Notes: a model not told the origin generated them from the letters alone. A DNA stretch of 64,000 bases from Catajapyx aquilonaris (GCA_000934665.2 JYFJ02000072.1:62001-126000), one strand, 5' to 3'; counted from the stretch's first letter, positions 5,562 to 64,000 are shown. Numbers and translations: made by a program.

Positions 5562-5739
5562 CTGCTTCCACTCCAGCCGTGTTTGAACCCCACTCGCACT
5601 TTTCATCAGGGATGAAAATTTCCCCCGGGAGATTTACCGTCAACAAGAATGTGTTTCCCTGTAAACCGGGGGCTTGTCGCAGCTGATAATGCCCCGCCGT
5701 TATTTTCCCCCGGCAGTTTCAAACATGATGGAAATGCAG
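5562..5739. mobile_element. Degenerate inverted-repeat element (possible old MITE)
   Basis: CTGCTTCCA...CCGTGTTTGAA pairs imperfectly with TTCAAACATGATGGAAATGCAG, and there are internal TTCCCCCGG/CCGGGGG motifs. Boundaries are approximate. Confidence 0.35.
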
Positions 5740-6330: not shown

Positions 6331-6580
6331 AGAAGGGGTTAGTGCCATAACGTGCTAAGCCACACTTTTGTGTTTTTTGAGCTTGCACGTGTCTGAAAGT
6401 CCCACCATCGTGCTTCACAAGTGGGCATCACGTAGTTAGAAAAATTCCCCATAGATCACGAGAAAATCACGAATAATGTTCCTTGTTTTGTATGATTTCC
6501 ATATTAAGCCAAACTTTTGAAAGCCCATATCTCAGAATGAAGGTTTTGTGGCTTAGCACGTTATGGCACTAACCCATTCT
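6331..6580. mobile_element. MITE with ~34-bp terminal inverted repeats
   Basis: Left AGAAGGGGTTAGTGCCATAACGTGCTAAGCCACA and right TGTGGCTTAGCACGTTATGGCACTAACCCATTCT differ by one mismatch. The interior is non-coding. CAAT occurs at both flanks, but the exact TSD is ambiguous. Confidence 0.8.
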
Positions 6581-12624: not shown

Positions 12625-13203
12625 TCACCAGTATTTGTAACCTGTAGAAATTGAAATCATTATTGAGATTAACTGGTTTAAGTTGGCTGTCGGTAATATA
12701 GCTATAATTTTTTGAAAACTGTGACCTACCATTCTGAATAATTTCATATGATTCGATTTAAAATGCCTCCATATCATGGTCGGTTATTGTGGCACCAACT
12801 CCCTTCCCTGACCCATACCATGTTAAGGTACTGTACTTACCGATAGACATTAATAAGCAAATCAAGCCTGGCCATTATACTAAAATTAATACTTCATACT
12901 CCACATGGCAGGATCAGTATTGTGAAAAGGAGATGAGTCATGTGTAACCCACATTGTTGTGGTTAGTTGAATGCATGCTACTAATGAGGGGGAAGTCACT
13001 TTGGAACTTTGTCATACATTTCACCAGAAATACATGAGCCGATCTTACTTTCTTACAAGGTTAAGGTACAAGTCCACAAAAAGTCTGGCTGGATTTACCG
13101 AAATCTAAATCCCATCTTATGCAAAAATGTGGAGTGACTTACCTCTCTTGTAGCTAGTCAGGCACACATTTGTAACAGGGGTCATTCTTGGCAGTTAAGC
13201 ACA

Positions 13204-26500: not shown

Positions 26501-29500
26501 TATACTGTATATTGTAATTGTCACTTTTACAGGATGAGCTGGAGAAGGCAGAGGATCTGAGGTCAGTAGGTCTGTCCCTGGTTGACCGTCACCCAGAGGT
26601 GGTGGACTCGGTGCAACCCAAATGTGTGGAGCTGCAGAGGGTAGCTGAGCTGTTCCGTGAGCGGATTGGACGGCGCTTGGAGTCTCTCAGAAGGGGGAGG
26701 GAGCTGCATGAGAGGATAGAGAAGGCCAACAAGTGGTGCACACAAGGGGTGGAACTGTTGGCTTCCCAGCAGATGGAGCAGTGTTCCTCGCCCAAGTTTG
26801 CTGAGATGATGCTCGCAGAGCTAGAGGACTTTCTGGCCAGTGCCTCTGACCTCAGGATTGCTACACCTAAAGAATCACGCAATATGTTCCATGATATGGT
26901 CACTCCAGACACCAAAGCACTAGTACAGCAGGTCAGCCCAATATTAAAGTAATGGTGTTGTAAGCTGTGTGAAAGCGTGCATGCCCACACACAACAAGGA
27001 ACCTAGACAATTCAATTATAACAATTTATCACTTCTGGTCATTCTCTATTAATAGTGATTGGGTTTGTAGAATCTACAGGGTATTTATGAATTACACTGA
27101 TAATCTTTGTGATGGGGTGGCTTGGGGGATATCAGAACTTTTAGCCTGATTCTAGCACTTCAACATTTCAGCTATTACTTTTATCATTTTGAAACACCCT
27201 GTATAAATCTAAAGGGTTTGAGAACTCCAAAGAGTGTTTTAATTCGGAGGTTCCTAGGCATAGGGTTACATGCTTTGTGAATGGTCTGCAGTATGACCTT
27301 CACTTCTTGGTTCATATTCATAACTATTGTACACAGGTGTTGCAGAGAATAGATGACATCCAAACAATGTGTGAAAAGAGGAAGAGCAGTCTCCGAATCC
27401 TGGCAGTGAGGCAACAGTCAAGTGAGGCATACCGAACTGCCCCCAAGCCCCACCTCATGAGCTATGCCCACACCAATGGAAACCTGGAGGGGCACAGCAA
27501 CACTCCCAAGTCGCCAAAAATATTTAGAAAAGCCAAGACTGTGCCAAAGGTAAGGATTATGCTAATGTGATGAAAATTATACATTGCATTACTAGTGGTG
27601 AATACCACATAGTCTCACTAAGTTATGGTGGGATTTTTGCGACAGTGATTGGTACTATTTTCAACTAGACATTTTCCATTTTTAACACATTTTTAAACTT
27701 GGTTTTTCAGCTGGAGACACCCAACCGAGACAGACAAGAACGTAGGAATAGCTCTTCACCGGATAGTGAGGGTTCCTTCCGAGACTCAGATGCCCTGAGA
27801 GCCAAGAGAGGCCATGTCCTTACAGAGCTGCTTGCTACTGAGCGCATTTATGTTGCAGAACTTCGTAGCATTCTGTTGGGTTATCAAAGTGAAATGATGA
27901 ACCCAGAGGCTCAGTCTCTCTTGCCCCCTCTCCTTATGGGCAAATCTGACTACCTCTTTGGCAATCTGGATGACATTCACAAATTCCATGACAAAGTCTT
28001 CCTTTGCGACCTAGAGAATTGCATCAGCTCACCTGAGCTGATTGGTCTCTGCTTCCTGCAGAGGGTGAGCATAGTAAACTTGCATTTCATACTTACCTAA
28101 TTTGTTGACTAAAGAAGCTAATGAGAATTTATCCTGGTAGCGTGATGCCTTCCACCAACTGTACAGCCGCTACTGCCAGAACCATCCCCAGTCGGAGGCC
28201 CTTCGCAGGGAGATGGGAGAGCAGAATCCTTTCTTTGTGGAATGCCAGCGTAAGCTGGGCCACAAGCTTCCCCTGGGGGCCTATCTACTCAAACCAGTGC
28301 AGAGGATCACCAAGTATCAGTTGCTTCTCAAGGATCTCATCAAATACAGTGAGGAAGGGAAGGGATACAAAGAACTGCAAGAGGCGCTTGATTGCATGCT
28401 GGCCGTGCTCAAGTGCGTCAATGACAGCATGCACCAGGTGGCCATTACTGGATTCCCTGTAAGTATCTTGAAGAGGAAGTTGTAAGTTTTGCAGGTTTGA
28501 AAATTGCCTTTTTATGCACAGGGCAATTTGTCTGAGCAAGGGCGTCTACTCTTGCAAGGATCATTTCGAGTATGGTCAGAGAGCAAGAAAGATCGGCTGA
28601 AAGACCTCCGTCTGAAGCCACGGCAAAGGCACATATTTCTCTACACACAGGCAATTGTGTTCTGCAAGAAGGCAGGAAGGGATCCAGATAAAGTGTCATA
28701 CCAATTCAAGAACTACCTCAAGGTATTAAATAGAGCTTAGGAGCTCACCTTGATTTTTCAAATGTGCATATAGCACTGATCTTTTATCACCTAATGCATG
28801 TAGTTTTTGTGGTACTTACGATTAAACCTTTATCCCAGATGTCCCAGGTTGGCATGACTGAGATGGTGCAGCGAGGTCGTGGTGACCAACGCCGCTTTGA
28901 ACTGTGGCTTCAAGGTCGTCAGGAAGTATATACTCTGCAGGCTCCATCCCTGGAGATAAAGGAGGCCTGGATTGGAGCTGTGAAGCGACTTCTCTTTGAA
29001 CAGCTGGAGCACCTTCGGGGGCAGAGCATCCGACACTTCACTGCCAAGATGCAGGCCAAGGGGGGGAGTGGGACCAACACTGCCATCAATGGAATTACCA
29101 GGCCACATCCTGTCTCTCCTCCTCTCGGTGGACACAAGTGAGTTTTTTTGTCAATTGTTGACCGAACATACCTTGATTATTGCTTACATGAAGTGAAGTG
29201 CCAATTATTATTACTGAACATCAACTACATGGCATTATTTTCTAGGCCACTTAGACACACCAGCTCATGGGATTACAGCAGCCAGAGCAACAACAACGTT
29301 CCAGAGCTTAACTTTGGCCGGCGCCTGCGCTTAATGAGCATGCAGGAAGGAGCAAGCAATGGGAGTGGCAGCATGGTTAGTGGAGGACCCGTCCCTTCGG
29401 CAGGAGGCAGCAGTGGCGACTCCCAGCATCCTAGCTGTGATGAAGAGGAGGGCTGGAGCACTGAGTACAGCAACAGTGATGATGATGACATCACTGATCC

Positions 29501-30289
29501 GTTCACTGAGCCTGCAGAGGTTGGTTGACTATATCACCAGACTTGCTTGAGATTGGGAGAATGCAACGCACTGTGATTGATCATTTCCAGAGCTACTCAA
29601 ATCACTATGTGGTGCTGGCTGATTACATAGCAATGGATCACGCAGAGCTTTCCCTCAGGGAAGGGGATCTGCTTGACTTGCTGAAAGTTGGATGTGCTGG
29701 ATGGTGGTTTGTCAGGCTCTTAGGTAAGGAGTCTCAATATCTTGGTTGCAGGAAGACCTGTTTATATCCTTGAATACTACAGGGAAATATCTGGAGGTTT
29801 AGGTACAAAGCAAGATATACCATAGCTCAATGTGAAGTACTGATTGAGTAATTATTGCATCCTACTGGGAGACATTACTGTTAGACATATAGCATAAACC
29901 TTTTCCAGTAGTTAGGTTCTTAAAGTATGCAGAATATATGGGCGGATCATATGTTACATTCGTTTTTTACTTTGAAACGGCTGCACTTTTGGCGCATTTA
30001 TTTAATCCTCCTTTCTGTTCCTTTGGATACAAAAGGATCAGGCCAGGAAGGTTGGGCTCCATCTGCCTACTTGGGCCGTATGTCGAAGACCAACCGCAGT
30101 TCTCCATCAGTAAGCAGCCAGGACAGTGGCATGGGGATCCTCCTCAATGGTGCCAGTGGAGGCGGCGGAGGAAGCAGTGTGGGTGGTGGCAGCAGTGGCA
30201 TCAGCCTGGATGGAGGGAGCAGGGGCCTGCGACATGCCACCAGCAGGACCAGCGTGACTTCCATTGTGAGCTCTACAAGCCACGACTGA
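23556..30289 (+). CDS. MCF2L: Rho guanine nucleotide exchange factor DBS/MCF2L-like (CRAL-TRIO, spectrin repeats, DH, PH, SH3)
   Basis: Phase-consistent GT-AG exons: 23556-23639, 24124-24238, 24323-24413, 24497-24610, 24696-24812, 25429-25554, 25629-25771, 26139-26373, 26533-26931, 27337-27549, 27711-28064, 28141-28458, 28522-28722, 28839-29137, 29246-29519, 29591-29723, 30036-30289. Motifs: GGKSRDGCPIITFP and GFVLIIDRRSDKW (Sec14-like); HVLTELLATERIYV and YLLKPVQRITKYQLLL (DH); RHIFLY...FELW (PH); VLADY...GWWFV..GQEGWAPSAYL (SH3). The 5' end lies upstream, or at the in-frame ATG at 23564. Confidence 0.93.
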
Positions 30290-33200
30290 GATGAGGGGAA
30301 AGGGGGAGGGTGGGTATGCTGGAGGTGACCTGGGCATCTCCAAAAGCAAACCACTGCCATCCCTCATGCTGTTGCTGTGGTACTCTTCTTCCGCCAACTA
30401 CAGTACAAAAGAGGTATATGATCGCTCCCAGAGGGTCAAAGCTTGTTACGTTACGTCTTACGTTCAAGATGCGGTGCGGTTGGAATTATTTCGGGAGAGA
30501 CCAGCTCCTTCCTCAAGCGAGACATGTTTTTCTCTTTTTTTGCATTTTGGGGCTTCCAACCAAGTTTTTAAAAAAGACCTTTTGATTTTTGCAGTTTGTG
30601 AGTTTGTGAAGAGGGGAGTGGAATACTAGTAGAGGTCTGTCTTAAGACAGATGAGTGTTTGATTTCTTTTGTGTGTGTGTTTTTGTTGCTGGGAAATGCA
30701 AGTGGCGAATAGACAATGAGATTTATGACGTGGAGTTTCCGCCAAATAAAAGGATGCTCGGAGTCTTCCTCCTTGTGTGTGTAGTCGCCATTATCTTCTC
30801 CCAGCCATGGGCACCTTGGTTGTTCCATCCTTTGTTGACTAGTAAGCATGTGGGGACTAAGAAAAACGAGGAATGTACAAAATGGACGTTTCAGTGTTGC
30901 TCTAGGCACATAGCTCCCCGACCTCACCCCCTCTGACCCTTTGTTTATGTAAACAAGGAAGTGACAGTCACCAATCTTCTTCAGTCTCTCTGTCCGTTGC
31001 ACCAAAGATTGAACCCAGTTTCTAGTCCAGCACATTTTTTTCCCCCATGCTATTTGTTATGAATGTTGAATTTATTCAAGGGTTGTCATTGGGGCTGGAT
31101 TTTAGAGATTGTTGTAAGTTATTATTATTATTACAAATCCTGTTTCACACCAAATGCATGAAACACACAAATCCTGTCTCTAGTCACAGCTGTTTTTGCA
31201 CAAGTCTGACAATGCATGAATGGTACTTCATTGTTGCTCTGTCAACCTGCCTTTCCAATGTGTGAATTTTGAGATGTATGCAGTATGCTGTTAATACTGG
31301 AATACATGCAGTTACTTCACTCCTATATCACCACTGCCCCCACAGCAATGTCTAGTTATCACCGGAATTAATGTTGGGTGTCCTATTGATGCATAGAAAC
31401 AGTTTAGGAAGTTGGTTGGAATATTGTGTAATTATGCTGTTATTACAAAGAATGTTGTGTTTGTCAAGTTATACCAAAGGGTGTGTGTTTCAATTGATGT
31501 AGGTCTTGAAAAGAACGGAAAGAAAAAAGAAAATGGCAGGTTTGGGTTGGTAAAGACTAGATGATTCTGTATGTGATAATTTTGGGTCTCACCCACAGCA
31601 CATTTACTTTCCTGAGCTTTGGTCCTTTCTTATGGCCACTAAGCAAATTGTTGACAGACGGGACCAAATTTGGTAGTTGTTGGAAGATGTGCTTGATAAT
31701 TTGGGCAGTTTGACCTGTTTTGTTTGTATACTCTGAGTTGTTGAGAAAGGAACCGTGTGTCATCCTTCATGATGAATGTGACTCAGAAATCAAAACGAAT
31801 GTGAGTAGCATGTAAGCCACAAGGACATATCCGGTGATTGTAAAAAAGAACTGTACACTAGACAAAAAAAGTGCCAATTGAGCCATGTTTTTTGCTGTTT
31901 AGGTCACAATTGCGACATAACTATTGCACCTCTGTATTTATTTGATAGGTGCCTCCCTTGTCTGTCTATCTCTTTCTACATTGTACTCTTCACACTCTTT
32001 TCCTTGCATGCGAATGGCAATAACGTGCACCATTTAAACCCACGATAATGAGCTTGATTGCAAATTTTTCCCAGTAATAATTTGTTGGAAAATAGTCTGA
32101 CAGGACGGAGTGGCTGCAGAATTTATTTTCTCCCTTACCCCGTAACTAGACAATAATAGCTTCAGGATACAACAAAGAGCGACATGGTGGGGCACGAAAC
32201 AAGTTCCCCATTTGTTGACTTGTTATGCACTTGCAGTACCTGTACTTCTGATGATTCGTTACACGATATTTGCAGTAACGTGACTTTCAGTATTTCAATG
32301 GGAAAACAGCAACAGGGCAAATTCTAATTAACGGGTTCAAATTAAAGGGTTCGAGAAAGCGTGTACATAGTAGTTCATAGGCGAATTGTTTTATTGCTCG
32401 TGCAACCAGAAATGGTGTTTTATAAACTCTCTTGGCTGGACTATGTAAAAAAGGGATCCTAGGCATCGTCCTATGTGTATTCAATGCCATTTGTATTTCC
32501 TGGCATACCTGTACTGTACACTATATACTGTATTTAAAAAGCAGCTGCTCATCGACCGCTCCAAGTGCCATAGTGGATCCAATCAAATTGTATTTTTTAG
32601 TTATTTGGGGGGGAGTTGGGTGAAACCCACCTTTTTCTGCTCACACTAATTAGCGACGTCATTCACTTGTCAGGCTCTGCGTGGGGATTGACACTCGTGT
32701 AGGAATGACTTGGATGACGAGTTAGAGACGCACTTTTACTGTCATTTGCACTACTCTGCCATGGCAGCAGAGTAAATGCCAAGTGAATCATTGAGTGTGT
32801 GTGACCTGTTAGATTGTTAGGCCGGTATCATGCAAGGAACGTGATTTCTTGTGGTTCATAATATGCGTAGGACTGAAAGTTGATTGTTGACTGTGCGTGA
32901 AATGTGAAGAATATTTTTTGCTACACGATGTTGGTTGAGGAAGTAGTGTTTTTGTGAGATGGGTCGAGAGTACCTGTGAGGTTTTGTGACTACACTTTTT
33001 TTCACCCCACTTTTTCTCTCCAGTGGCATTTGAATATGAGCGGGGAGGAAAGCACTGATGCATTGGTGGATTCGTTTCCTGTATTCAAAAATTTTACTCC
33101 TGGGCAGTCTTATTTTCATACAGTAAACGGCTTCAAAGCAAGTTGGACAATCGTACACAGCAGTGTTTCAGAGCATATGGTGTCTGGATCCTTTTTTGTA

Positions 33201-35285: not shown

Positions 35286-36296
35286 ATGTGCCAGTGCGAG
35301 CCCATACAGTCCCAAGCGGAGGACCCCAGGAGGGAGGAGTGCGCTGACCCCAGACTCACCCAGTGGTCACCATCATCTGACAAGAGGCCAGACAGCAACT
35401 ATGACAACATGGACCAGGAGAGGATACATCAAAGGCCATTCAAGTAAGTGTCAGCTATTGGACCACGGGCGTTATTATGCAAAGTGCCACGTGCGTTGCG
35501 TCATCTTTCTGTGCTCATTGCTCCCGTGTGTGTTTCCATAGGGCTATCATGGGGATGCCCCAGCCTGCTCACGTGGCGGCCCTTGTGGCGGCCGTGACCT
35601 CGGCCTTGCTGCTGATGCCATCAGATTCGGATCAAGGAGGAGGGACATTTCTACCGGCTCTCTTGTATATCTTCACTTTCGCAGCTCATGTTGGGACGCA
35701 ACTCTGGATGACATTTGTGGCAGGTGAGGCCAGTGTTAAGCCCTCTTTAATCACATCTGAAATCTGGTTAATCTTTCTAAAAAAATTTAAGCTAGTGACG
35801 TACGGATTATCGGTATTAATACTTGGCTTCCATCATTACAGGGATTCTGCTGTTCTTCAGGGTAGAGAGACGTACTTTCGGCCAAGTGCAGGGGATACTG
35901 TTTCCAGCATATTTCTTGCTGAATGGCCTGTTGGGGCTGGTGACCGTCACGTCGTTCCTCAGGTTACATCCAGATGCCCAGATGCAAGCTCTGGCTCTGG
36001 GTGGTGCTTCAGGGTGCGAGCTGCTGGCCAGGCTGGTGGTTGCTCCTCCTATGCTGAGGATAATGAATGCCAGGGCCGCCCTGGAGAGGCGATGGGGACT
36101 CAATCGCAAAGTGGGGAGGTTGACTCCCGAGGACTTGAGTGTGATTCCCGGTGCACAGTACCAGGATCTCCGCAAGAAGTTTGTAAGGCTGCATTCGGCT
36201 GCTGCCATGGCCAATCTGACTGCCCTCGCCTGCAATGCCTTTCACCTGTGCTATCTGGCTGCCAAGATCGCTCAAATATCGCAGCTGCCCAGCTAG
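35286..36296 (+). CDS. TMEM205: Transmembrane protein 205-like (DUF4149)
   Basis: Exons 35286-35443, 35542-35723 and 35842-36296 are phase-consistent. Motifs: QPAH, FAAHVGTQLWMTFVAG, RRTFGQVQGILFPAYF, YQDLRKKFVRLHSAAAMANL. AATAAA at 36497. Confidence 0.88.
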
Positions 36297-43685: not shown

Positions 43686-44522
43686 TAATTAAGATATTTA
43701 CCCAAGCTCTAGAGCAGCCAGTGTGTTGCACAGAGTAGAACAGCTTTCTGGTCAACGATGGTTTGCACCACTAAGCTGTTATTTGTATGATAATACAGTC
43801 GTGACTGAACTCCTGCACATATGTGACATTTTCATTGGTTGTTAGTATTTCCAAGAATCTAATTTTTGGTAGAAAAACTGTGAAAGCCACTACATATTGT
43901 CTGGAATTTAAGGTCATTGCACGTACAATTTGTGTGCATGTCATAGTTTGCTCTGGGATATACTGGATATTGGATATACTGGTGAAGGAACAGCAGACAC
44001 GGCCATTGTCACTATCAATCCCAAAGCTGAATGCAGGTAAAGATCCACTTCAGAAGGGAGTGCTCATATGCTCGTAACACCTAGGTTGCGAGTAGTGGTT
44101 GATCAGGACTTGAAATAATGGTCACCAGCATGATCACCAGCAGCCCATATTAGAGGCCAGTAGAGAGAACGGGAAGGTCTAAGGATGCCCTCAAAAAGCA
44201 GGTTAGGTAGTGGCACCACGTGAACAAAGGCATCTATTTGATGAATTTGGTGTCTGTCAGGAGACTGTCACACCTGATCTGGGTAAATGTATGTGCACAT
44301 GACAATCAGCATCAACAACATGGCATAGGGCAAGCCTTCAATATGATTAATGGAGGCATCACATGCTAGTGCTGGACTCCAGGTTGGACTGTTTTTGGTT
44401 ATGTTGTGCATAGGAAAATTGTTCTCGTGTACAGATGTACTACATTCTTTGCATTTATAAATTCCTCCTCCCCACCTATTTTGTCATCTATCTCCCATTC
44501 CCCGAGGGGGGGGGGGGGGGGG

Positions 44523-44529
44523 NNNNNNN
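44523..44529. other. Assembly gap (7 N) after a G homopolymer
   Basis: nnnnnnn directly follows a poly-G run. Confidence 1.
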
Positions 44530-47500
44530 CAAAAGCAATCATTCCAGTTGCCTGCAGTGTTGTGTGTTCATTCCCTACGACTCCTTGTGAAATACCATTG
44601 TGCTTGGTGGCTGTATACTAATTTGTCACCATTTTTATTACTGCATCCCCACCTTATGATTGTGCAAGTATTTTTATTTGGGCTTGTAAAAATAATCACT
44701 CACTGTTCATGTGTGGTGTCATTAAATTGGTATGTGTCACAATATGCATGCTACTGGTTTTATGCGCAGGAAATATTTCATGTGAGTTTTATTTTGGCCT
44801 TCCTCTGATGATAGTGGTGTCGCTGTTATCTGGTTGATAGTGTGAGTACAGTATCTTGTAGTATCTGAGAACTTGGTAGCATTGATGCCTGGTTAATTTT
44901 CTTTCCCTATATTTCAATAATTTGACATTTTTAAGGAATATTAATAAAATTTGAGATGTCTTAATAGGGAAGAAATGTATGACTGTTTGTTGTGTGCTTG
45001 TAAAGTTGGGGCTTCTAGTGATGTAATTTAAAGTGTGAGTTCAGTGATGGGTTAACTGCCACATGAAAATCTTTTTACAATAATTATTCGTAATTTTGTA
45101 TCATGAAGTTATCCAGGTGTGTGTCACTACTGAGCATCCATCTGGTATCATACTTGTTGGCCAAAAACTAATGTAAATGCAAAATCTGTAGCAATTGATT
45201 TCTTTTGAGTTGGAAGGAGCCAAAGCAACTAATATTATCTGGCCTTTAGAAGATAGTTGAGATAGATGGAGATAGAAACTAAGAGAGAGAGAATACAGGA
45301 ACGACTGATATCTTTCTTTGTTTCCTATCTCACAAAGACCTTTCCAGAATGGATGACCCTGCCAGTAGACCAAGCTACTTCCAATGCAGCTCTTAGAGTT
45401 GTCAGAGTATTATAAGACCGTGTCAGAGAAATACAGCAGTGTTGCCTAGGGAAAAGGATATGAGAGGGATATTGATTACTTTGCAAAAGGTTGAGTTTTT
45501 TGCAAGGACATCTCGTTGCATCTTGTGCACAGTAACCATGCTACTCTAACCTTACAGCTCTACCTTCCTAGACCAATGATGTAGCATGCAGTATTCTCTG
45601 TAGTTGTTAGCGTTCAGCATAATTAAGCTCATTTGACATGCCCCATTCACAATACAGCAGCCATATAGGCTCTGTAGCAAGAACTTTTGCCCTTGGGTCT
45701 GAGGTCAACATAACTTCAAATAAATTCTATCCCTATGTACACTCTCTGACTGTCCTGCTGCTCTGTACTAAGCCAAGGGTGAAAGTCTTGTAAGTCACAA
45801 AAGTTATGACACATGGCATGTGTATAAGAGTGATTAGGAAATTATGGCAATGGCTGTGGTGGGGGCTTCGAATGATTTAAGCAGCATTATGTGATCTTCT
45901 TCATGTATTATGTAATGGAAAATCCATTGTAGTGTTACAAAGTTATATGTCTCGCTCACTAATGTTTATAATATAATATTGAGCAATAGTGCTTGAATGA
46001 GTACACATTGCCCTAATCCCCTGCAATATGACTTTCCCGTTGGCATGCAACATAATTGTGCATGTAACCAACTATCGTCACAGACATAACAGCAATATGA
46101 GTCAGATTGCTCTTCATCCTGATGTTACAGCAAGCAGGATTGCACTGTTGAATATTCATTTATCTATCACTATGATACACGGTTTCATTCACATTTGTAG
46201 TAAACTAGGCATGAAGTCATACTTTTACGCTGGCATTAATGGGATCTGAGAAAAGTTGATCATAGGCTCCAAAGACAGAACAATTAGACAACATGGATAT
46301 AAAAATATCACATTTGACGATTTGTGGTACTGTTTTTGATATCAGGCAGGATTTTTATGTCACCTGCTAGTCCTTGTCATATATACAGAATGACGGATAT
46401 GTGCCTGAATCACATTATTCTGCTGCACGCGAGTACCAGGTTTTAGGTACTGTTAGGTGATACACATTTTCAAATAATTATCATACGATTTTCTCTGGTG
46501 CCAACAAAGTTTTGTTACATAATTTTCTATTTCATGTCACCTCAGTTTTCCCCAACATCTGTTACCAGTACTGCGTATGGTAATGGGAAGATTTTTGAAA
46601 TATTAATGTGATTCATCAAACATATGTAACAACAAGCAGGTGGTCTTAACAATATTGCTACACTCCCTATTTTAAAATTTCACGTAGCACTGCTTCCAGC
46701 TGCCCCTACCAAGTACTCTGGATTGTGCTTCAGAGGCTACTGCATCACCCATGCACGCAAGGTGACCTCAGCAATTTTGTGTGACAAAGAAGCCTGCTTT
46801 ACGTCAGGATCTGTGTAATTAATTATGGACTGTGTTAGAAGCGTATTCTATTCTGATTCCTTCCGGAAGTGAAGACCAGGTGTGTCCGGGTGGAACTGCC
46901 AACAGGAGGTCATGTTGTGCCGCAACAGTTGTGAGACCAAGCAGTAGTGACTCCCCCAAGTTGGTTGTCGCTTGCATTGATAATGACCGATATGATGAGG
47001 GTTGTTCCCCGGCTGTATTAACACCCAAGAGGACAAGTGATTCCGGAAGCATTGCTCAGTGGAGGGTTACCACCGCCAAGGAGATTGCAACATGGGATGT
47101 CATTATTCTACATCAGCCAAAGAATGGATCCGATTGGGAAGGTGGGGAACCTCCAGTGACGTGGGCATTCTTGGTAACCTCCCATTTAGCTGTCACCTGG
47201 AGGCCACTCAGTAGGGCACACACATTGAACCTGTCTCACCTCCTGCCCTCCCTCCCACCCAATATCCCATTAATGTTACACCAATATACAGGTGCTTTTG
47301 TTTATTTGTGACATCCTGGTGACGTATGTAGGGGAGGAGAATTTTTGTGTACTGATGAAAAAGAGATAGTAGTGGTGCAGGCAGCAAACCGGATTCACAA
47401 TGGTTTTTCTGTGAGAGACTCTTCTACCACCCACCTGTTGTAACGCTGGGCTCTGGGTGACCACTTGAGGAGGTTAGGAAGGATCTGAGTGGTAAGAAGG

Positions 47501-49203: not shown

Positions 49204-51581
49204 ATGGACAAGAAGTCTTCAGAGTATTCGTCCCTGTGAGTGACAAAAATAGAAAACTTTTTTTGTGTGCTGTGACCATTGTTAAATAATTTGTGAAGGG
49301 GTGATAAGCAACGTGTACTTTTTTTTTGCATTCAGTTGGTGATAAGACTCATTTGCTATGATAAAATTGCATTGCTTTTTGCATATGTTGCAGGTTGGGG
49401 CAACTGAGTCCATCCTACTACTCCAGTATGGGCGAATCAGCCCACCGCATTGTTTTCTGCACACATGGAAATGTGTATGGTGTGGGAACAGCCACCTGCT
49501 GCCCTGATGCCAAGGTGGAGAATGGTGTCACCCCAACTGACAGAGACAGGAAGGAGTCCTTTGCAGAACACTGCCACCCTAGTAGAAATGAAGGACCAGA
49601 CACGAAGGCTAGGAAAAGGCTCATTATCGCCAGTGTCCTATGTGTCGTGTTCATGATTGCAGAGATTGTAGGTAAGCAGTGTCAATGCCCCAACAGAATT
49701 GATGACATTGCATGGAGGTGGCTTGATTGGCATGTCCTGAACTTCCTGCTCTAATTATTATGTCACAGCCTTGGACTTGCATCAGTGATGCATGTCAGCA
49801 TTCAAAACAAAAATTTACAATGGGAACTTAACAAAGCAACTGGGCAAGCTTTACAGTTCATTACAAGTGGATTGTCTATAAGCAGTTTTCTGAGGCTTTA
49901 TACCCTCCCACATGAAAAATCCATGCGCTTAATTAATTATTACATCTTACACTTACTTCTTTGACTTCTAGGTGGATACTTAGCAAACAGCTTAGCCATA
50001 GCCACTGATGCAGCGCATCTTCTGACAGACTTTGCAAGCTTCATGATCTCCTTATTTTCTCTATGGGTTGCTACCCGCCCTGCCACACAACGAATGAGCT
50101 TTGGCTGGTACAGAGCTGAGGTGATTGGAGCCCTTACCTCTGTCCTGATGATCTGGGTAGTCACAGGAGTTTTAGTTTACATGGCCGTTCAGAGGGTCAT
50201 CAACCGGGACTTCGAGATTCAGGCTGACATCATGTTGATCATCTCGGGTGTTGGGGTGGCAGTTAATATTGTGTGAGTATTGCTGATTGACTGTTGCATA
50301 GCATGTCAAGGAAGGTTTTTATTGTTCTAGAGTGGCTCCATAAAAGGCCAAAGTGTAATGATGGGGATTTCCTAGTTATGAGGATCTCTTTTGTTTTCAA
50401 ATGATGTTATTGTTATTTTTAAAATTTAGGATGGGCTTAACACTCCACCAGCATGGGCATGGTCATGGAGGCCACGGTCACAGTCATGGAGGTGGTAAAC
50501 ATGGCCACAGCCATGGAGATGGCGGACATGGCCACAGTCATGGTGATGGAGGAGAAAATGGTGAAGTCAAACTTAGTGAAAGGGCTCAGAAAGAAGCCAA
50601 TATTAATGTACGAGCTGCTTTCATCCATGTCTTGGGCGATCTCCTTCAGAGTGTGGGTGTCTTTGTCGCTGCTCTTATTATATATTTTAAGGTAAGTGGT
50701 CACTTGTGGGTCCTGGTACATACCATTAAACTGGCCATTACATAACCATTGCCTTCCTGCAGCCGGATTGGAACATCGTTGATCCCATTTGCACATTTCT
50801 GTTTTCAATCTTGGTGCTGGCCACTACATTTGCCATTATGAAGGACACTCTGACAGTTCTTATGGAAGGTGAGAGTTCTTGATCCTATCATTTGACACTC
50901 ATGTAATCTAATAAACATTCTCTCCCCCAGGTAAGCCTAAAGGAGTAGATTTTGCAGAAGTTCTGAGCACACTCATGGATATAGAGGGTGTAAAGCGAGT
51001 GCATAATCTGCGAATATGGGCACTCAGTATGGACAAGACTGCTTTAGCTGCTCACTTGGCCATTGGTAATTTTTTAATTCTCTTTGTGTATCTGACTGAT
51101 ATCTTACGTTGTTCCACATCAGTAAAACCGGGCATTATCACAAACGATCATTCTCATGACTAGACTAGAGTGCATTATATAACATGTTGTGCCTGGCAAA
51201 TTTGTAACCAAGTATACTGGATGGTGCACATTCTAAAAACCAGTTATGATACAATATTGTGCATGGTAGACGTTCTTTAGGTGGATAATATTTTGTGATT
51301 TGTACCATTTTGAAAAACTTGGTGAGAAACTAGATGCAAATGGAACTGATTATGGGGCTTATATACATAATATACTGTATAAATATTTTATATTTACATA
51401 TGTCATGATGCAACATGTTTTATATCTCATTGTAGAACCTGGAGTAGGTGCACAAACAGTCTTGAAAGCAGCATCTCACGTGGTTCGTTCCAAATACGAC
51501 TTTTTTGAGATGACACTCCAGATTGAAGAGTTCCGAGCAGAGATGGAAGACTGCACACAATGCCAGTGTCCAGAAAAATGA
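49204..51581 (+). CDS. SLC30A2: Zinc transporter, SLC30/CDF family, ZnT2-like (proximal isoform)
   Basis: Exons 49204-49235 (candidate first exon), 49394-49671, 49972-50272, 50430-50691, 50763-50868, 50931-51065, 51436-51581. Motifs: [30 protein letters not shown], His/Gly-rich loop, [42 protein letters not shown], CxxC tail. Exact orthology among ZnT2/3/4/8 is not resolved. Confidence 0.93.
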
Positions 51582-54204: not shown

Positions 54205-54777
54205 CTATCTTCCTAAGAAGAGTCCAGCAATCATGGAGTGGCCATTGATAATAGCCAGCTTGAGGGGTGTCTCACCTTTAGAATTCAGCTCATTGTGTTT
54301 GGCTCCCGAGTCTTTGAGCAGCTTGGCGCATCCGTGTCGTCCGTTGGCCGCAGCCAGATGCAGAGCCGTGTCTGAGTCATCATTGGTAATGTCCAAGTCG
54401 GCGTCGTTTTCCACCAGCAACCGAAGAATGGCTTCGGACCCTTCCTTGGCCGCCAGATGGACCGCGGTGTTGCCCTTGTTGTCCTTCAGGTCGAGCAGGG
54501 CTTCGGCCTCGATTAACTGCTCGGCCACCTTGACATTGTTGCAAATGGCTGCAAAGTGCAAGGCGGTCAGACCCATTGGATCCTTCACATCCACGTTCGC
54601 GTTCTTCTGCAGCAACATCTCGGCGGACATGAACCCCGTGCTCATATCCTTGGCTGCCGAGTGCAGCATGGTGTGCCCAGAGGCTGACACCTGGTCCACG
54701 TCGAGGGTGTCTTCCTCCTCCACTGCCGCCTTGCCTTTCTTACCACCCTGCTTCATCTTAGAAGTTTTGCCGGACAT
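54205..54777 (-). CDS. Small ankyrin-repeat protein (190 aa, single coding exon)
   Basis: Repeats GHTMLHSAA, GLTALHFAA, GNTAVHLAA, SDTALHLAA and GETPLKLAI. Acceptor TTTCAG just upstream of the ATG. AATAAA on the minus strand at 54149-54154. Confidence 0.9.
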   Translation of the reverse strand: MSGKTSKMKQGGKKGKAAVEEEDTLDVDQVSASGHTMLHSAAKDMSTGFMSAEMLLQKNANVDVKDPMGLTALHFAAICNNVKVAEQLIEAEALLDLKDNKGNTAVHLAAKEGSEAILRLLVENDADLDITNDDSDTALHLAAANGRHGCAKLLKDSGAKHNELNSKGETPLKLAIINGHSMIAGLFLGR

Positions 54778-55264
54778 TACTTCTGAAATGACACACCCTC
54801 ACATCGCAATCAGTCTGGCTTGGGATTACAGAGTTTGGAAGCAATTTACCTGACTCCTCTTTTGCAAGGGTCTGTCCACCTAGCCGGATGAAATGTGATT
54901 GTTTCTGCTATCAGCAAGATAAGTACAGCTCTACAGGATAGGCCAACTGCAAATCTCGAGAGTACCAGGCAGGACTAATCGAAGGCACTTCCTTCATCTT
55001 ATCATGACTCAGGCGGATGAGGTTTATAGCAGGACTATGACATTTGCGAAGGCAAGCTATACATAAAGACATCCACACAAAGGCAAGTCCTGATTACTTG
55101 TATGTGGAATTGGAATGAGGAATTCTGTAAATGCAATGCTGCCGAAACGAAATGTTTTGTTTGAAGTGATGAGCATGAAAGGCATCACCATCTAATTACC
55201 CTTGAAATGGAAATGGAACCAAAATAACTAGAATGATTAATGTTGCGACCTGAGAAGAGCTTTA

Positions 55265-57232
55265 TTAACGACGAATCAGGCTCGACTGTCTTCGTGCTTT
55301 AAGTAGCATTTTTCTTTTTTCGAGAGCCTTTTCAATTTCTCCTTTGCTCGGGGTATGTTCGTCATATTTTGTGTCAATGAACTCTGTCCCCAATCGTCCA
55401 CTAGCTGCGTTATGATGTAGGACTATCTTAAGATGAGCTGCCATCTCCTCCAGCAACTTGGTGTAGCTGATAAACAAAACTATCATTAATGAAGAACTAG
55501 AATAAATCAGTAGGCCACCTACTTCTCCGATGTCGTTTCCATTTGTTTCAGAGCCAATAGTAAACGATTGATCCAAGCAGGATTAGTGAGGACAGTTTTT
55601 GTAGATACAAAGTCGTCGTGTCTCAAATGCCTTTCAAATTCTTCAGCCAAGGAAGAAAAATCTGCATCTGTAAAAGGGCAAAAGAATGTTCATCAAGTTC
55701 GAAACAAAAATTCATAATTATATTCTCGAACCTTTGAATGTTATTTCTGCTTTCACCACTCTATTAGTCTGAAGCCGACGAATAACATCTTTCTTCTCTT
55801 TCACAGCTAACTCTCTCTCGCGAGTAATATCTTTCTTGTTCTGCGTGGTGGTTTCTTGAACGTTCAAAATAATGATTCCCACAAATATGTTGGTTAGCAG
55901 TAAGTGACCCACACAAACGAAAGCTACGGCGAAAGCTCTTCCGAAATTACGCCATCCTGATTTTTCTAGGGCGATCACTACATCAGTCCAGCCGTCGATC
56001 TAGTTGCCAAAGTTAGTTTTATAGACGTTATAAAGCATTGCTATAATTAACGAAACCTACCGTAACCCATGAGAACAACGTCAATGTAGCCATCCCAAGA
56101 GACCCAAAATATTCCTGATTTCCCTTGAACAAGTTGAATCCAACTAGAGCAAATAGGTACATGACCAATAGCACCAGAAAAACCACGCTCAGGACATTGT
56201 GTGCCAAAGTGTCGAGCAAGGCTACCACCAACACCTGCAGATATACCGGTACTGTATGTCGCATCAAAGGGCTAAAACTATTAGCACCAAGGCAACATTA
56301 ACGTACTTGTAAAGTGGATGAAAACGAGACACTTCGTAGAGTTCTCAGAGTTCGAAAAGCTCTCAACACCTTAAACACTTGTGCGCCCTTGGTTCCAGTG
56401 CTGACAAACGACAAGAGCTCTTGAGCCATTGATCCGACAAGGATGGCGAAGTCAAAGATGTTAAATCCTGAGTCCCAATATTGAGTTGGCTCGGCGTATA
56501 TTTTGAACACAAATTCCAGGGTGTATATGGCCAGGAACACCTTCGCAAGAAGAAGGTAATTAATAATTGGTGAATGTTGATTAAAATTATGTTGACCTAC
56601 TTCATCCACTGCTGACAAAAAACCCTGCAAAAATGCAAGTGTGCGAAAAGTGTCCAGACACAAGAAGACTGCGTTGATCAGAATGCAGAGCATGATAAAA
56701 TTTTGAAACCAGTTTGATTCTGTCATGACCTGCAATGAAAGTACTCTCATTGTCATGTGTGATGTCTGAATATGGGGCGTACTGTACCTTTATGAAATCA
56801 TGAAGTTCTTTGTCTGGACGTATGCTCTCATCTTCTTCCTCGTCCGATGAGGATTCCCAATCCTGTGCATCATCTTTGCCTAAATACGTCTCCAACACTA
56901 TCGTCTCCTTCAATGACTTTCTTTTATTTCCTTGTCTCAATCTCCATGCTCGAGGAGAAAGTATTATCCTGGCAAAAACCCTAGCTATTCTTCTCGGTGC
57001 ATTACGAATCTGCCGGAAGATGCGTGCTAAAATACTCCTAGAATTTAATGCACGGTTTAATTCATGTCTTATTCGCTTCTGCTCTGCCTGCGACATCGTG
57101 CGTTTGGTCTGAAAAATGATATGAAAATATTTCAACTTGTATATCTTGCAGAATGATTTATATTGACGAAGCAGTTACCTTGCCCTGTGCATCATTCTGT
57201 AATAATTGCTGGCGTTGCGTCGGAGTCAACAT
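55265..57232 (-). CDS. CATSPER3: CatSper3-like sperm cation channel alpha subunit
   Basis: Eight phase-consistent exons: 57232-57179, 57108-56788, 56729-56601, 56540-56307, 56234-56061, 55999-55732, 55667-55523, 55466-55265. Single 6-TM domain: YTLEFVFKIYAEP..YW.SGFNIFDF, S4 KVLRAFRTLRTLR, pore TIDGWTD, S6 TNIFVGIIILN, a coiled coil and FSSLAEEFERHLRHDD. Confidence 0.85.
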
Positions 57233-57521
57233 GATGCTGGCCTAACACTTGCGACGGTGTACCACTTCAGATATACGACCAGCCGGGTTATAGCACGGCA
57301 ATTCAATCGTTACCAAGCAACAATATAATAGTATCTAATGACTGAAAAAATAGGGGGTAAAAATATCCCAACTCCAGTCCTGGAGCAGGTGGAACTGTGA
57401 GGTCTTGAACATAGATCCTGCAGCAGAACTTGAGTTAGGGAAAATTTAAAAAACGCAAAAGTCATTGTTGAAAATAATTGTTTGAGGTTACAGTATAATG
57501 CATGTATAGCACACATAAAAT

Positions 57522-59183
57522 TCAGCAGAGGATTTTGAGAAGGCGTGCGAAACGCAAGATGTCTTCGAAGCTGCAGTAAAGCGGAGATGGCGACACCCGT
57601 AGATATCCAGGCGGTCTGACATCACACTGAAAAATATACAGTACATGACCAATCTGATACGTGCACGATATTCAATTGGCGACATACCACAACTCCTCTG
57701 GACTCCAGAAATTGATGCACTTTTTTGATGTCCACGTTTGCAAAGTTTAGTGTGATAAGAGAACCTCTCTGAAGTGGATCTTGTGGAGTGACCACTTGGA
57801 TCTGATTAGGGTCAAAGTTTAGGCGAATAAGAAGTTCAAGGTATTCAGAGAGGCAGCGTTGCTTTTCCCGAATTTCGTCCATGCTTGTCAATGAGAATAT
57901 TTGCAAAGATGCATATAAAAGGCTTGCATGCCAAGGAGAAGGTGTTGTAATCCGGAAGGCTCTTGCTCCCTTGGAGACATCTATGTGTTCTTCCATGTTG
58001 AAACGAGTCTCAATTTTGTTTGACCACCACCCCACCAACGCTGGAGTTGTCGCTTGATGGCGATTGTGCACAAATATTCCTCCTAAGCCTCCAGCACCAC
58101 CACACAAATACTACCAGCAATGAAATGTATGAACAACAATTCGAAGAACGAGAGTAGCTGATACTTACTTTGTTGGAGCACCAGCAAGCAAAGTCCAGTC
58201 CCCACGAGTGAAGCTCCAGAGGAACATTTCCGACTGCATGAGCCAAGTCCCAGCCCACCAAACATCCCCGAGCTCTTGCCATTTGAGTAATCTTGGGAAT
58301 GTCTAAGAGCTGACCTACACCATGAAACATGTCAGTTTGAGCCAGTTGTTGCACGATACCACATTTTACCTGTTCGGAAGTTGATCCCTCCTAAAAACAC
58401 CACTGATAGGGTATCTCCATGCTCATCGATGGCTGCAATAATGTCTTCATTTCTAAGGAGGAATTCGCCTTTCCGAGGACCTACTTTGATCATGGCTTCT
58501 TCAATTGTGTGCCCATGGTGTTTAACCTGAGATTGCAACATGTACTGAAAGAATTGATGTTAATTAGTATGGACATCACTAGTCATGCATCATTAGTCGG
58601 TACCCTGTCAGAAGGAAAGGCTCCATCTTCGAAGAGTATCTTGAAGCGTGTTTGCGTCGGCTGGTAAAATGACAGCAGGAGCAAACCTATGTTGACACTG
58701 AGGCCATTGAGAAGAGCTACCTCTCCTGCGACCGCCCCGACCAATCTTTGCAAGCCTTCTTCGCAGGCTTCATCGCAGGAAATGACAGGAAGAGATCCGT
58801 GGACATAGCTGTGGGCGCCCCTGTTGGCAATGTGACACAATAAGAATCACTTTGTTTTACAATAACACGTGTATGGTACCATTGACCCCAGCTGTCCAAC
58901 TGCTCTTGGATGTACTTGTCTGCCGTTTTTGGCTTCAATCCAAGGGAATGCGTGCACAAGTATATGCAGTCATCATCAGGATGTACCGAATTCAAATCAC
59001 CTGCAAGTTGTTCAAGAAGAGTTTACTTTTATTCAGGACCGTGAGAATATTTTGCTTACAGTTGGGCAGTTGCTTCATTTTTGGAATGGTAAAATGCGAG
59101 CGAAGGTCCTTCAAAGGATCTAGAGCATCCATCATCTGAGCAAATTCCGTGCTTTCAGGATTCACATTGAGAGCCTTGGACAT
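57522..59183 (-). CDS. KYNU: Kynureninase paralogue A (divergent active site)
   Basis: Exons 59183-59060, 59000-58880, 58820-58604, 58544-58370, 58314-58169, 58110-57688, 57626-57522. Motifs: [57 protein letters not shown]. The reading frame is intact. The true start may lie upstream (in-frame exon 59337-59273). Confidence 0.9.
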
Positions 59184-60659: not shown

Positions 60660-62415
60660 TCAGTGCTGAGCAACAGTTATGGCATCCTCAATGGCCAAGA
60701 CGAAACGGTAGACATCCTTGAAAGTGTTGTACAATGGCACAGGAGTCACCCGCAGAAAACTAGGAGGGCGTAAGTCAGCCTGAAAAGCATTGTTACCAAT
60801 GTGAGTGTATAGTATACCAGTATGTTTCATCAAACAAAGATAGCTACTAACCACAACACCCCTTCGCTCCAGTTCGTGAAACACCTTGGCGAGTTCGACT
60901 CCATGCAGAAGGAGTGTCAGCTGTGCTCCTCTTTGCGTCGGGTCTCGAGGGGTCACGATTTCCAGTGTGTCAGGACGAAAGTGCAAGTTCAGTAGCACCT
61001 CCAAGTAGCCGGTCATTAGGCGCTGCTTTCCCCTCACTTCCTCGATGCTGGTTTGTTCAAACACCTTGTAAGAAAGAAGACAAGTGGTGTTGAAACACCA
61101 AGGGAACATCCAGGGTCGGTTGAACAAAAAATTACCCGCAGACTGGCCATCAGCAGAGACATGTGCCATGGAGATGGATTGCTCATTCGGAAGGCGTCTG
61201 CTCCTTCTGCCAAGTCCACATCTGGTCTCATCTCGAATCTGGTTTCATGTCTTCCGGACCACCAGCCCTGAAGTCGAGGATGCCAACGGGTATCGGTGTG
61301 ATGACGCTTGTGCACGAAGATCCCGCCCATTCCTCCTGCTCCGGAGTTCAGGTACTGGAAAGAACACGCTGTCACCAAGAAAAATCGACTGCCTCGGATT
61401 ATGTTTCTTACTTTGTAAGTGCACCAACAAGCAAAGTCCACATTCCAGTTGTGCAAGAAGAGCTGGACGTTGCCCACAGCATGAGCCAAGTCCCATCCGA
61501 CCATGCAGCCTTTCGCCTGAGCTGCTGATGTGATGGACTCTGCATCCAGCATTTGACCTGAGGAAACAGTGGCACATGTCAGCACTGAGAATTTTTGGTG
61601 ACATGGGACAGTACCAGTTCTGAAGTCAACGACGTTGAGAAACACGACAGCGATGGAATCTCCTTCTTTTTCAATAACATCTAGGATGTCTGAATTGCGC
61701 AAGATGTGCTCTCCAGGACGAGGACGCAGAAGAATCAGTGCCTCGGAAGGTGAATGGCCATGAAGTTTTGCTTGTGTTTGTGCCGCATACTAGAACGTCA
61801 GCCATTTTATTTCGGTACAGATAAAATTTGATGTGCTCTTACAAGATCAGAGCTGAAGGCACCCTCTTCCATGAGGATCTTGAACCGTGTGTCATCAGGA
61901 CTATAAAAAGTAGTCAGCAGGACATGAATATTGACAGTAAGGCTGTTCATCAGAGCAACCTCGTCCTGCTCTGCCCCTACCAACCGCCCCATGCCCTTCT
62001 TTGCAGGCTGGTCGCACAAGGCAGCAGGCCATCTTCCATTGTGATGCATGTGAACGCCCCTGAAATGAGCCAAACACATCTAATATTGCAGTCGGGAACA
62101 CCCCCGACAAACTCACCATTTCCCCCAGTTGGTCAGTTGCTCCCGAATGTATTGGTCGGCCATCCATGGTTTCAACCCCAGCGAATGGCCGCAGAGATAA
62201 AGGGCCTCGTCGTCCAGGTCAGCCAGGCCAATGTCAACTGCATGGTTGGTGATGTCAGTGTCAGTTTTTTAAGTATCGTAATCTGACTTACTGTTTGGAA
62301 GGTCCCTCATCTTGGGCATAGCAAACTGTCCTCGAAGAGGCCGCAAAGGATCGTGCTCGTCCATAAAATTGGCAAATTCCACCGAGTCCACTGAGACGTC
62401 GCTGACTTGTGCCAT
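60660..62415 (-). CDS. KYNU: Kynureninase paralogue B (canonical)
   Basis: Exons 62415-62292, 62237-62117, 62059-61843, 61789-61615, 61557-61412, 61354-61136, 61064-60852, 60779-60660. Motifs: [81 protein letters not shown] on the minus strand at 60582-60587. The start codon is uncertain. Confidence 0.92.
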
Positions 62416-64000
62416 TTTGTTAAGGACGTCATCCGGTCTTTGCTTTTGTTCCTTGGAGTCAATAAGATTATGTCAAAAACAATGATCTAGTATATTCAAA
62501 CACTGCAGTGACAAACGGATCGCACTTGGCATTCGTTCCATAAGCGCTGGATCTGCTCATGGTCCTTGGCATTTAATATCTCGCTCGTCGTAGATAATGC
62601 AGCTGTAAATGTAAACGATGCAAACAACCCGCTGTAAATTTCTACAAGACAAATTTAGCATACTTAATCACACAAGGTTTCTGATTTTGCAATGACTACA
62701 GGAATGCGAGATGACCTTTCCTTGTGTCAAAGGTTTCCTGGGTTATCAGTCTTAAAATGTCCTCCAAAAGCTTTTAATGCGTATGAAGCACACACGTATA
62801 AACTGCACTAATCAGGCTAATTACTGCGTATGTAAATTAAGCGCAACTTACAGTCCCTCCTTAGGAATCCTTCTGGCAAACTTCCTCTTCTGGATGGAGG
62901 TGAAAGGGCAGATTGAGAGAGCCAAAGAGGTGGTGTACCTCTACTACACACAGCCATGGTGCCACTCTAATGGTGGCTCTTCTTCAACAAAGGATTCCAC
63001 TCTTTAAGAGAGACGAATCTTACCTCGTTACAGTTCGCAAGAAGCCTCTCCCGGTTCTGTCACGAGGAGCAAGACGATCGCGAGGTCACCCTCGACCCTT
63101 GACCACTTCTTATCAGAGAAACTGAGCAACTCCTTATTTGCACCATCGAATGTTGCGCTCTTCGAACAATCGGGAAGTGTTGTTGGGGATTGGTTGGATA
63201 CAATAATAATAGTGGGAGGATTTCAGCTCTTATCTGGATGGGACAAAGTTTACTATTGCGTTGTAACTCCATCAGCCAGTATTACAGGCTCGATTACAGG
63301 CCTATAACATGATGATGCTGATGTGTTAGTTATGAAATGTTTTACGTATGCAATGTAAGAATCTTTTGACCAATAGGAAGCTTTCAGGGACATGGGTATT
63401 CCCAATTTCCATGAGGGTAAAGAACAGATAACTCATCCAGGGTCAAAGGGCACCACGGTTGCACTCCCAATGCCACCTGCAGACCAAAATAATCAGCCCG
63501 TGATAATAATGTTCAGCCATCATCAATTGACCTAAAATTGGGACGTGTTTCATAGTCTTCAGGATTTACAGGTGACGATGAATATAGTTATCTAATAGTT
63601 TCAAGGTTCTGATATATTCCACCCACATGCATGATAGTGTGTTGCTATTTACATTATAAGATTTTATTTACTCTCAAAGTTCTTACCTTTGGCAGCATGC
63701 CCTAAATGACTGGACACATTAGCCAAGGAGACCTTGCTTGCATGATGACCTTGAGCAGATGTGGAGTAAATACATCAAGTAGATGCACACTTCTGATTAG
63801 ATTGGATTGGTATATTGTATGCAATGTGCTCAGTGTGTATTGGTTTCAAAGATATCACCATGGTGTGTCATGTAATGTAATGACAAACATGCAAAGTATA
63901 GGAGAAAACTTTTCTTAATGCAGCTTACAGTTGATAGTAATATACATGTTGAACGAACAGAACAATACGGTACTACTACTTTACAGTTTAATTGCACATA

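Follow-up and report, generated by a model that had tools for sequence, protein, structure and literature searches.

Introduction

The sperm cation channel CatSper is built around four pore-forming alpha subunits, CatSper1 to CatSper4, and several surveys bear on its presence in arthropods. Cooper & Phadnis 2017 (PMC5553355), citing Cai & Clapham 2008, count arthropods among the lineages that lost the whole CatSper suite. In Cai & Clapham 2008 (PMC2572835) itself, a CatSper4-like expressed sequence tag is noted from the springtail Onychiurus arcticus. According to Romero & Nishigaki 2019 (PMC6660944), CatSper occurs in Brachiopoda, Cnidaria, Ctenophora, echinoderms, amphioxus and tunicates, and its distribution among arthropods is heterogeneous (their Fig. 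4); none of six arthropod genus names occurs in those supplementary files of that paper that were examined. Among the matches listed when the literature on springtails and centipedes was searched for CatSper, there was no CatSper paper. In NCBI annotation, proteins of the barnacles Amphibalanus and Pollicipes and of Priapulus already bear the name CatSper3. Here we describe a gene at positions 55265 to 57232 of a 64,000-nucleotide stretch of DNA from Catajapyx aquilonaris (GCA_000934665.2 JYFJ02000072.1:62001-126000), the whole of which was analysed and is called the 64-kb window below. Judged from its sequence, this gene is probably the CatSper3 orthologue of a pancrustacean-type arthropod and would thus encode one of the four alpha subunits of CatSper.

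Results

Structure of the gene

The gene lies on the minus strand (57232..55265) and was rebuilt, within 57300-55200, from open frames joined at GT..AG sites. It has eight exons, with a start ATG at 57232 and a TAA stop at 55267-55265. All seven introns are GT..AG, with lengths of 70, 58, 60, 72, 61, 64 and 56 nucleotides (nt), and the coding sequence of 1527 nt comprises 508 codons plus TAA, without an internal stop or frameshift. A sequence-only reading of the stretch had proposed an intact 8-exon gene for a single-domain channel with six transmembrane segments (6-TM), and the rebuilt gene has exactly the limits given there. Its parts are as follows; scores refer to Pfam Ion_trans and to a profile of CatSper3 orthologues that is described further below.

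Exon 1, 57179..57232, minus strand: 54 nt, codons 1-18, with the ATG at 57232 predicted as start; a GT donor follows 57179 and the frame continues into exon 2
Exon 2, 56788..57108, minus strand: 321 nt, residues 19-125; Arg-rich amphipathic stretch, acidic run, conserved pre-S1 motif at its end
Exon 3, 56601..56729, minus strand: 129 nt, residues 126-168; S1 (132-150); Ion_trans positions 2-25; CatSper3 profile 23.2 bits
Exon 4, 56307..56540, minus strand: 234 nt, residues 169-246; S2, S3 and S4; Ion_trans 50.8 bits, E 1.7e-13; CatSper3 profile 103.8 bits
Exon 5, 56061..56234, minus strand: 174 nt, residues 247-304; S4-S5 linker, S5, pore helix and the filter's first residue (T)
Intron 5, 56000..56060, minus strand: 61 nt, with in-frame stops; 57 nt kept at the 5' end of the X5 contig
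Exon 6, 55732..55999, minus strand: 268 nt, residues 305-393; filter IDGWTD (55999-55982), S6 (~327-351) and post-S6 helix
Exon 7, 55523..55667, minus strand: 145 nt, residues 394-442; C-terminal motif DFSSLAEEFERHLRHDD (55662-55612); CatSper3 profile 32.9 bits
Exon 8, 55265..55466, minus strand: 202 nt, residues 442-508 plus TAA at 55267-55265; the CatSper3 profile covers the first ~20 residues but not the basic tail
3' untranslated region, 55242..55264, minus strand: at least 23 nt, to the end of the X5 contig (record 9)

Exon 2 is free of stops in its own frame, whereas the alternative frames have 11 and 8, and an open frame arises in just 8 of 20,000 composition-matched shuffles, which indicates that the gene model is more than chance. 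Splice junctions 6/7 and 7/8 are backed by a contig from the sequencing run X5, with 0 mismatches, and the other five by gap-free alignment to the CatSper3 profile only. The acceptor of exon 5, CTGCAG/GTG (56234), was picked to hold the frame open and gives a gap-free junction against that profile (50.3 bits); it was used in place of an acceptor at 56271, with which the frame is broken. Exon 1 and the start codon are predictions, without transcript cover or homology, and M23 in exon 2 (57096) offers an alternative start. Intron 3 (56541-56600, 60 nt) is itself in frame and stop-free, such that its retention would add 20 residues to the S1-S2 loop and cause no truncation.

Channel features of the protein

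Pfam Ion_trans matches exons 3, 4, 5 and 6 collinearly, at positions 2-25, 41-116, 126-184 and 188-239 of its 241. Exon 4 alone exceeds the 25-bit cut-off (50.8 bits), while exons 3, 5 and 6 score 18.3, 17.5 and 21.9 bits. The S4 segment, KVLRAFRTLRTLR, occupies residues 225-237 (56372-56334) and carries a positive charge at every third position (K225, R228, R231, R234 and R237). The selectivity filter TIDGWTD, residues 304-310, is encoded across the exon 5/6 junction; it has the T-x-D-x-W pattern, and its counterparts in the alignments are vDGWtd in the CatSper3 orthologue profile and VDGWTD in the CatSper3 chains of human and mouse. Both the Arg/Lys S4 and the TIDGWTD filter had been picked out in the sequence-only reading, and both are found in the rebuilt protein. 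The C-terminal motif DFSSLAEEFERHLRHDD stands at residues 396-412, within exon 7.

Similarity to CatSper3

When exon 6 was compared with the Protein Data Bank (PDB), human and mouse CatSper3 came first (49.9 and 49.0 bits, E 2.5e-12 and 4.7e-12), followed by Cav3.2 at 3.2e-8. Exon 4 gave 35.0 bits to CatSper3 and 27.1 bits to CatSper1; the larger totals of Cav and Nav chains for this exon arise from summing four repeats. An exhaustive HMMER search with exon 6 against 1.84 billion representatives yielded 98 matches at E<=0.001, the best at 39% identity, and the top match (P0001) carries the NCBI name 'Cation channel sperm-associated protein 3 [Amphibalanus amphitrite]'. The same name is attached to relatives in Pollicipes, Lingula, Tubulanus, Glandiceps, Branchiostoma, Nematostella, Priapulus and others. 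A word-indexed homologue search with exon 6 among 'longer' proteins returned 156 candidates, 0 of them at E<=0.001, and the gene and its close relatives seem to be absent from that collection.

The full-length protein matched NCBI-named CatSper3 proteins in BLASTP at E 3e-85 to 1e-68, with 36-41% identity over ~330-390 residues. These relatives come from barnacles, Lingula, annelids, a nemertean, a hemichordate, amphioxus and cnidarians. Four-repeat Cav and Nav proteins scored 52-90 bits (E ~1e-21 to 5e-9). A profile built from 15 metazoan CatSper3 orthologues matched the protein at 361 bits (E 3e-111) over positions 12-374 of 382, and the alignment extends through residue 461, that is, into the post-S6 cytoplasmic region. 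Exon 7 by itself matches this profile at 32.9 bits (E 1.8e-11), on the motif 'F..m.e.Fq.tLrhDD'. The C-terminal resemblance to CatSper3 that had been claimed earlier is therefore real at the level of the family, and is invisible when the mammalian chains alone are used.

Phylogeny

Three trees place the protein among CatSper3-like sequences. A 71-row tree, made by a quick method with bacterial Nav as outgroup, puts it in a CatSper3-like clade of 66 rows (99), and the branch to bacterial Nav has a length of 1.62. In a more careful tree of 36 rows, with non-metazoan CatSper3-like proteins as outgroup, it lies within the metazoan CatSper3 clade (100/100), as do the named CatSper3 proteins of Podarcis (lizard) and Amia (bowfin), whose vertebrate clade is fast-evolving. 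Its sister there is P0021 of the springtail Allacma fusca (97/90), and the two together are sister to four barnacle-type rows (91/96). When Allacma was left out (31 rows, quick method), the protein still grouped with the barnacles (94), in a 12-row clade composed entirely of protostomes (95), and the overall species order was sponge, cnidarians, deuterostomes and protostomes. The PDB ranking, the BLASTP matches, the profile score and the metazoan CatSper3 clade all agree with the CatSper3-like identity first proposed for this gene.

Evidence for transcription

Five sequencing runs of one organism are listed, of which X1 to X4 come from one 2014 sample, possibly the source of the DNA studied here, and X5 from another sample and study in 2022. 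None of the five is on record as RNA, and the library type and tissue of X5 are not on record. Runs X5 and X1 were compared to the window over 55000-57500. A 695-nt contig of X5 (record 9) lies, with 0 mismatches, on 55242-55466, 55523-55667 and 55732-56056, skipping introns 7 and 6 exactly, and its joint ends read CT..AC on the plus strand, which is GT..AG on the strand of the gene. The DNA run X1 covers the same interval in one piece and has 0 contigs with the intron 6 or intron 7 joints. Because the X5 contig skips these two introns and the DNA run X1 does not, we infer that the gene is transcribed and is spliced as modelled at its 3' end, with a 3' untranslated region of at least 23 nt, and that X5 holds RNA-derived sequence. 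Exons 1-5 lie outside the cover of X5, which is uninformative on their expression.

Two further observations were made in X1. A joint from 56257 to 57318 was set aside since its side of 21 was too short. In addition, a short high-copy repeat with many diverged copies and loose ends occupies 57336-57453, ~100 nt upstream of the predicted ATG, and there the summed contig depth of X1 climbs from 33.7 to ~2,800-7,000.

The N-terminus

The first 105 residues of the protein contain 17 Arg. Within residues 43-66 (57036-56965), 18-residue windows are strongly amphipathic, their moments being 2.0 and 2.15. Further downstream, at residues 104-113 (56853-56824), comes an acidic run, SSSDEEEDES. The Arg-rich amphipathic stretch is present from either start, M1 or M23. 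Only the last ~20 residues of exon 2, just before S1, align to the CatSper3 orthologue profile. Exon 2 matched no Pfam family, a search of the ESM Atlas gave no lead (best score 0.78, recognition 1331), and comparison with the N-termini of barnacle and springtail CatSper3 found no detectable similarity (best E 0.16). The sequence-only reading had remarked that this region was unlike vertebrate CatSper3; in our searches it matched nothing, the barnacle and springtail N-termini included. From its sequence, the Arg-rich N-terminus is a lineage-specific addition to CatSper3.

A more speculative and improbable reading sees in these ~105 residues a regulatory module that is new for a CatSper pore subunit, made of the Arg-rich amphipathic helix (43-66) and then the acidic Ser/Asp/Glu run. 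As a guess, the basic helix might bind calmodulin or be autoinhibitory and be paired with the acidic run as a phosphorylatable patch. If true, such a module would take over the Ca2+ and pH sensing in this lineage for which mammals use the His-rich N-terminus of CatSper1 and EFCAB9-CatSper-zeta; alternatively, it could let a reduced CatSper function with fewer partners.

The host and the surrounding window

A Pfam scan of 143 open reading frames (ORFs) and ORF pieces gave the following neighbours of the gene.

24425-30300, plus strand: DBS/MCF2L-like RhoGEF with spectrin-like, DH and PH domains (Pfam)
35820-36293, plus strand: DUF4149 (TMEM205-like) ORF (Pfam)
49365-51160, plus strand: ZnT-type zinc transporter, Cation_efflux and ZT_dimer, with a long His/Gly-rich loop at ~50440-50560
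54208-54798, minus strand: ankyrin-repeat ORF, ~470 nt downstream of the CatSper3 stop and on the same strand
57534-58977 and 60678-62454, minus strand: two tandem kynureninase genes with short introns, directly upstream of the CatSper3 gene

The kynureninase genes are informative about the host. In a search with a kynureninase ORF, the top named proteins among the best 120 of 686 matches were those of the crustaceans Artemia, Scylla, Tigriopus, Portunus and Petrolisthes, at 47-50% identity. A tree was made from 43 rows, namely 33 named matches hand-picked across phyla, 8 unnamed top matches and the 2 copies in the window. Both copies are placed in a clade of 15 rows (99) in which every named member is a crustacean, and the highest identity, with Tigriopus, is 53%. 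Kynureninases of chelicerates, myriapods or insects did not occur among the best 120 of the 686 matches, and the clade is therefore compatible with other arthropod classes as well. Taking the kynureninase and CatSper3 trees together, the latter grouping the protein with barnacle and springtail genes, the host is likely a pancrustacean-type arthropod, in keeping with the 'probable arthropod' of the sequence-only reading. It is not close to any annotated species within the collections searched.

The two kynureninase copies are each other's closest relatives at 50% identity, and the branch of the proximal copy is 1.44 as against 0.53; the proximal copy may be diverging or decaying. Elsewhere, an uninterrupted ORF of 531 codons on the plus strand (13138-14730) is without a Pfam family and has a Ser/Thr/Gln-rich C-terminus and a Cys-containing central block. 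The 7 N bases of the window are probably at ~44.5 kb, in a small assembly gap; the ORF at 44461-44805 has two X residues, which account for at most 6 of the 7. An Rfam scan of the window gave 0 matches.

Discussion

The protein described here appears to have all the sequence features of a CatSper3 subunit, namely a voltage-sensor domain with a fully charged S4, a T-x-D-x-W filter, an S6 gate and CatSper3-type cytoplasmic helices after S6. The Asp of its filter would form a quarter of the acidic ring that selects for Ca2+. By homology, the subunit would join CatSper1, CatSper2 and CatSper4 as a heterotetramer in the sperm flagellum, and the channel would admit Ca2+ upon alkalinisation or depolarisation, altering the flagellar beat.

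Several observations weigh against this assignment, and we take them up together with the alternatives on which they bear. The first group concerns the identity of the family. Our trees hold no CatSper1, CatSper2 or CatSper4 rows, and the exclusion of these paralogues rests on the PDB scores and on the species-like order of the clade. The tree rooted on bacterial Nav channels, a comparison already suggested in the sequence-only reading, helps in part: the branch of 99 puts the protein with the CatSper3-like rows, but its position among them is basal (81), apart from the arthropods. Against the PDB, exon 5 is no nearer to CatSper3 (21.8 bits) than to bacterial Nav of the NaChBac type (22.4 bits), and exon 7 has no match at E<=10. 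The missing paralogue rows, the basal placement and the behaviour of exon 5 speak for an alternative in which the protein is some other voltage-gated-like channel with a single repeat, whether CatSper1, 2 or 4 or a one-domain channel of Nav/Cav-like type, that long-branch effects or chance have pulled towards CatSper3. However, the same branch of 99 parts the protein and all CatSper3-like rows from bacterial Nav, and the 361 bits to the CatSper3 profile include the family-specific C-terminus. Moreover, the PDB puts CatSper3 first for exon 6, with no CatSper1, 2 or 4 chain among the best 60 of 61 matches. As a calibration of the scores, a named fish CatSper3 orthologue gives 201 bits to mouse CatSper3 and 81.5 to CatSper2; barnacle CatSper3 gives 188 bits to the mouse protein. 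We consider a channel other than CatSper3 highly improbable, and this explanation close to refuted.

The second group concerns the rate at which the gene has changed. The terminal branch of the protein is 1.83-2.43 compared with medians of 0.53-0.58, so that long-branch effects are possible, and the join with Allacma was flagged by the tool as a meeting of long branches. The sole transcript contig keeps intron 5, running 57 nt into it before it ends, and a protein made from such a transcript would be truncated before the filter; the molecule or assembly path behind this contig is unspliced at that intron. Relative to CatSper3 orthologues the S5-pore loop is shortened by an 8-residue deletion, and 58 of 72 near-invariant columns are kept, which leaves 14 altered. 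A terminal branch 3-5 times the median, the deletion, the altered columns and the retained intron would all fit a gene under relaxed constraint, an incipient pseudogene that is still open and transcribed and from which a working channel is no longer made. On the other hand, 508 codons in eight exons have remained without a stop or frameshift, about 10 of the 14 changes are hydrophobic swaps (I/V, L/V, F/L, M/L), and neither the filter nor any of the S4 charges has been lost. The springtail orthologue is also about as divergent (62 of 84 columns kept), and rapid evolution is usual among sperm proteins according to Cai & Clapham 2008 (PMC2572835). Decay of the gene is in our view very unlikely.

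The last point is that the Pfam scan found no CatSper1, 2 or 4, no auxiliary subunit such as beta, gamma, delta, epsilon or EFCAB9/zeta, no SLC9C1 or sAC, and no other channel or CatSper-related domain, among the 143 ORFs and ORF pieces of the 64-kb window. One could take this to mean that most of the CatSper complex has been lost and that CatSper3 persists alone or with one partner, forming a homotetramer or a tetramer of hetero-dimeric pairs, possibly outside sperm. Reduced sets do occur, since Romero & Nishigaki 2019 (PMC6660944) give a butterfly with two of the four alpha subunits and an ostrich with three, and the very long branch and new N-terminus would fit a changed role. Nevertheless, CatSper genes are not expected to cluster, and their absence from one window is hence uninformative. 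The filter, the S4 and the CatSper3-specific C-terminal helices are kept, and in the solved complex those helices belong to the assembled channel. An orphan subunit of this kind is unlikely, and we continue to favour a CatSper3 orthologue that would serve in a CatSper complex, the retention of which was proposed in the sequence-only reading.

The CatSper3 gene adds a member to a family already described, from a phylum whose scattered retention of CatSper is documented. By itself the find is incremental, since CatSper in non-insect arthropods is apparent from database annotation and from two previous surveys. The novelty implied by the sequence-only reading was overstated, as arthropod CatSper was known from 2008, from 2019 and from the barnacles annotated by NCBI. 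What is gained is one more data point, an intact and spliced CatSper3 in a further pancrustacean-type lineage that groups with barnacle and springtail genes. It is in line with an ancestral arthropod that had CatSper and with later, repeated losses in insects and others. The organism is also a candidate for testing CatSper-dependent control of sperm motility in an ecdysozoan. Many crustaceans have aflagellate sperm, and the retention of CatSper in arthropods may track the retention of a beating flagellum.

Comparison with known channels

The bacterial one-domain Nav channels (NavAb, NaChBac) and the four-repeat Cav channels share the Ion_trans fold with this protein, and over S5 and the pore helix it resembles NaChBac as much as CatSper3. 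The C-terminal motif of CatSper3 is absent from both bacterial Nav and Cav, and the filters of bacterial Nav and four-repeat Cav channels are not known to be of the T-x-D-x-W type.

Among CatSper3 proteins, the nearest named arthropod orthologues are those of the barnacles Amphibalanus amphitrite (P0001) and Pollicipes pollicipes (P0101), with 40-41% identity over ~360 residues (E 4e-80 to 3e-85). As the identity is only ~40%, the host is not a barnacle. Barnacle CatSper3 also has an N-terminal extension, of ~90 residues, which has no detectable similarity to the N-terminus found here (best E 0.16).

The springtail protein of Allacma fusca (CAG7829679.1, P0021) is 38% identical over 336 residues, shares the TIDGWTD filter and is similarly divergent, with 62 of 84 columns kept. 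Its model has ~500 extra N-terminal residues that are absent here, and the sister join between the two may be a long-branch artefact. P0021 is 889 residues long and labelled 'MSP domain-containing / unnamed protein product', with the CatSper3-like channel at residues ~510-839; it is probably a fused gene model that hides an unannotated hexapod CatSper3.

Mammalian CatSper3, as seen in the mouse CatSpermasome (7EEB chain C) and in the human structures (9UBW/9UBX chain C), has 395-398 residues compared with 508 here, the difference being due to the ~105-residue Arg-rich/acidic N-terminus and the basic C-terminal tail of the present protein. The likeness to the mammalian chains is detectable exon by exon only, and exon 7 is without a PDB match. 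For exons 4 and 6, mammalian CatSper3 is nevertheless the top single-repeat PDB match, and the exon 6 alignment spans 81 residues (E 2.5e-12). The filter reads VDGWTD in mouse and human and IDGWTD in this protein, and the two share the single 6-TM repeat, the T-x-D-G-W-T-D filter, S6 and the helix that follows it.

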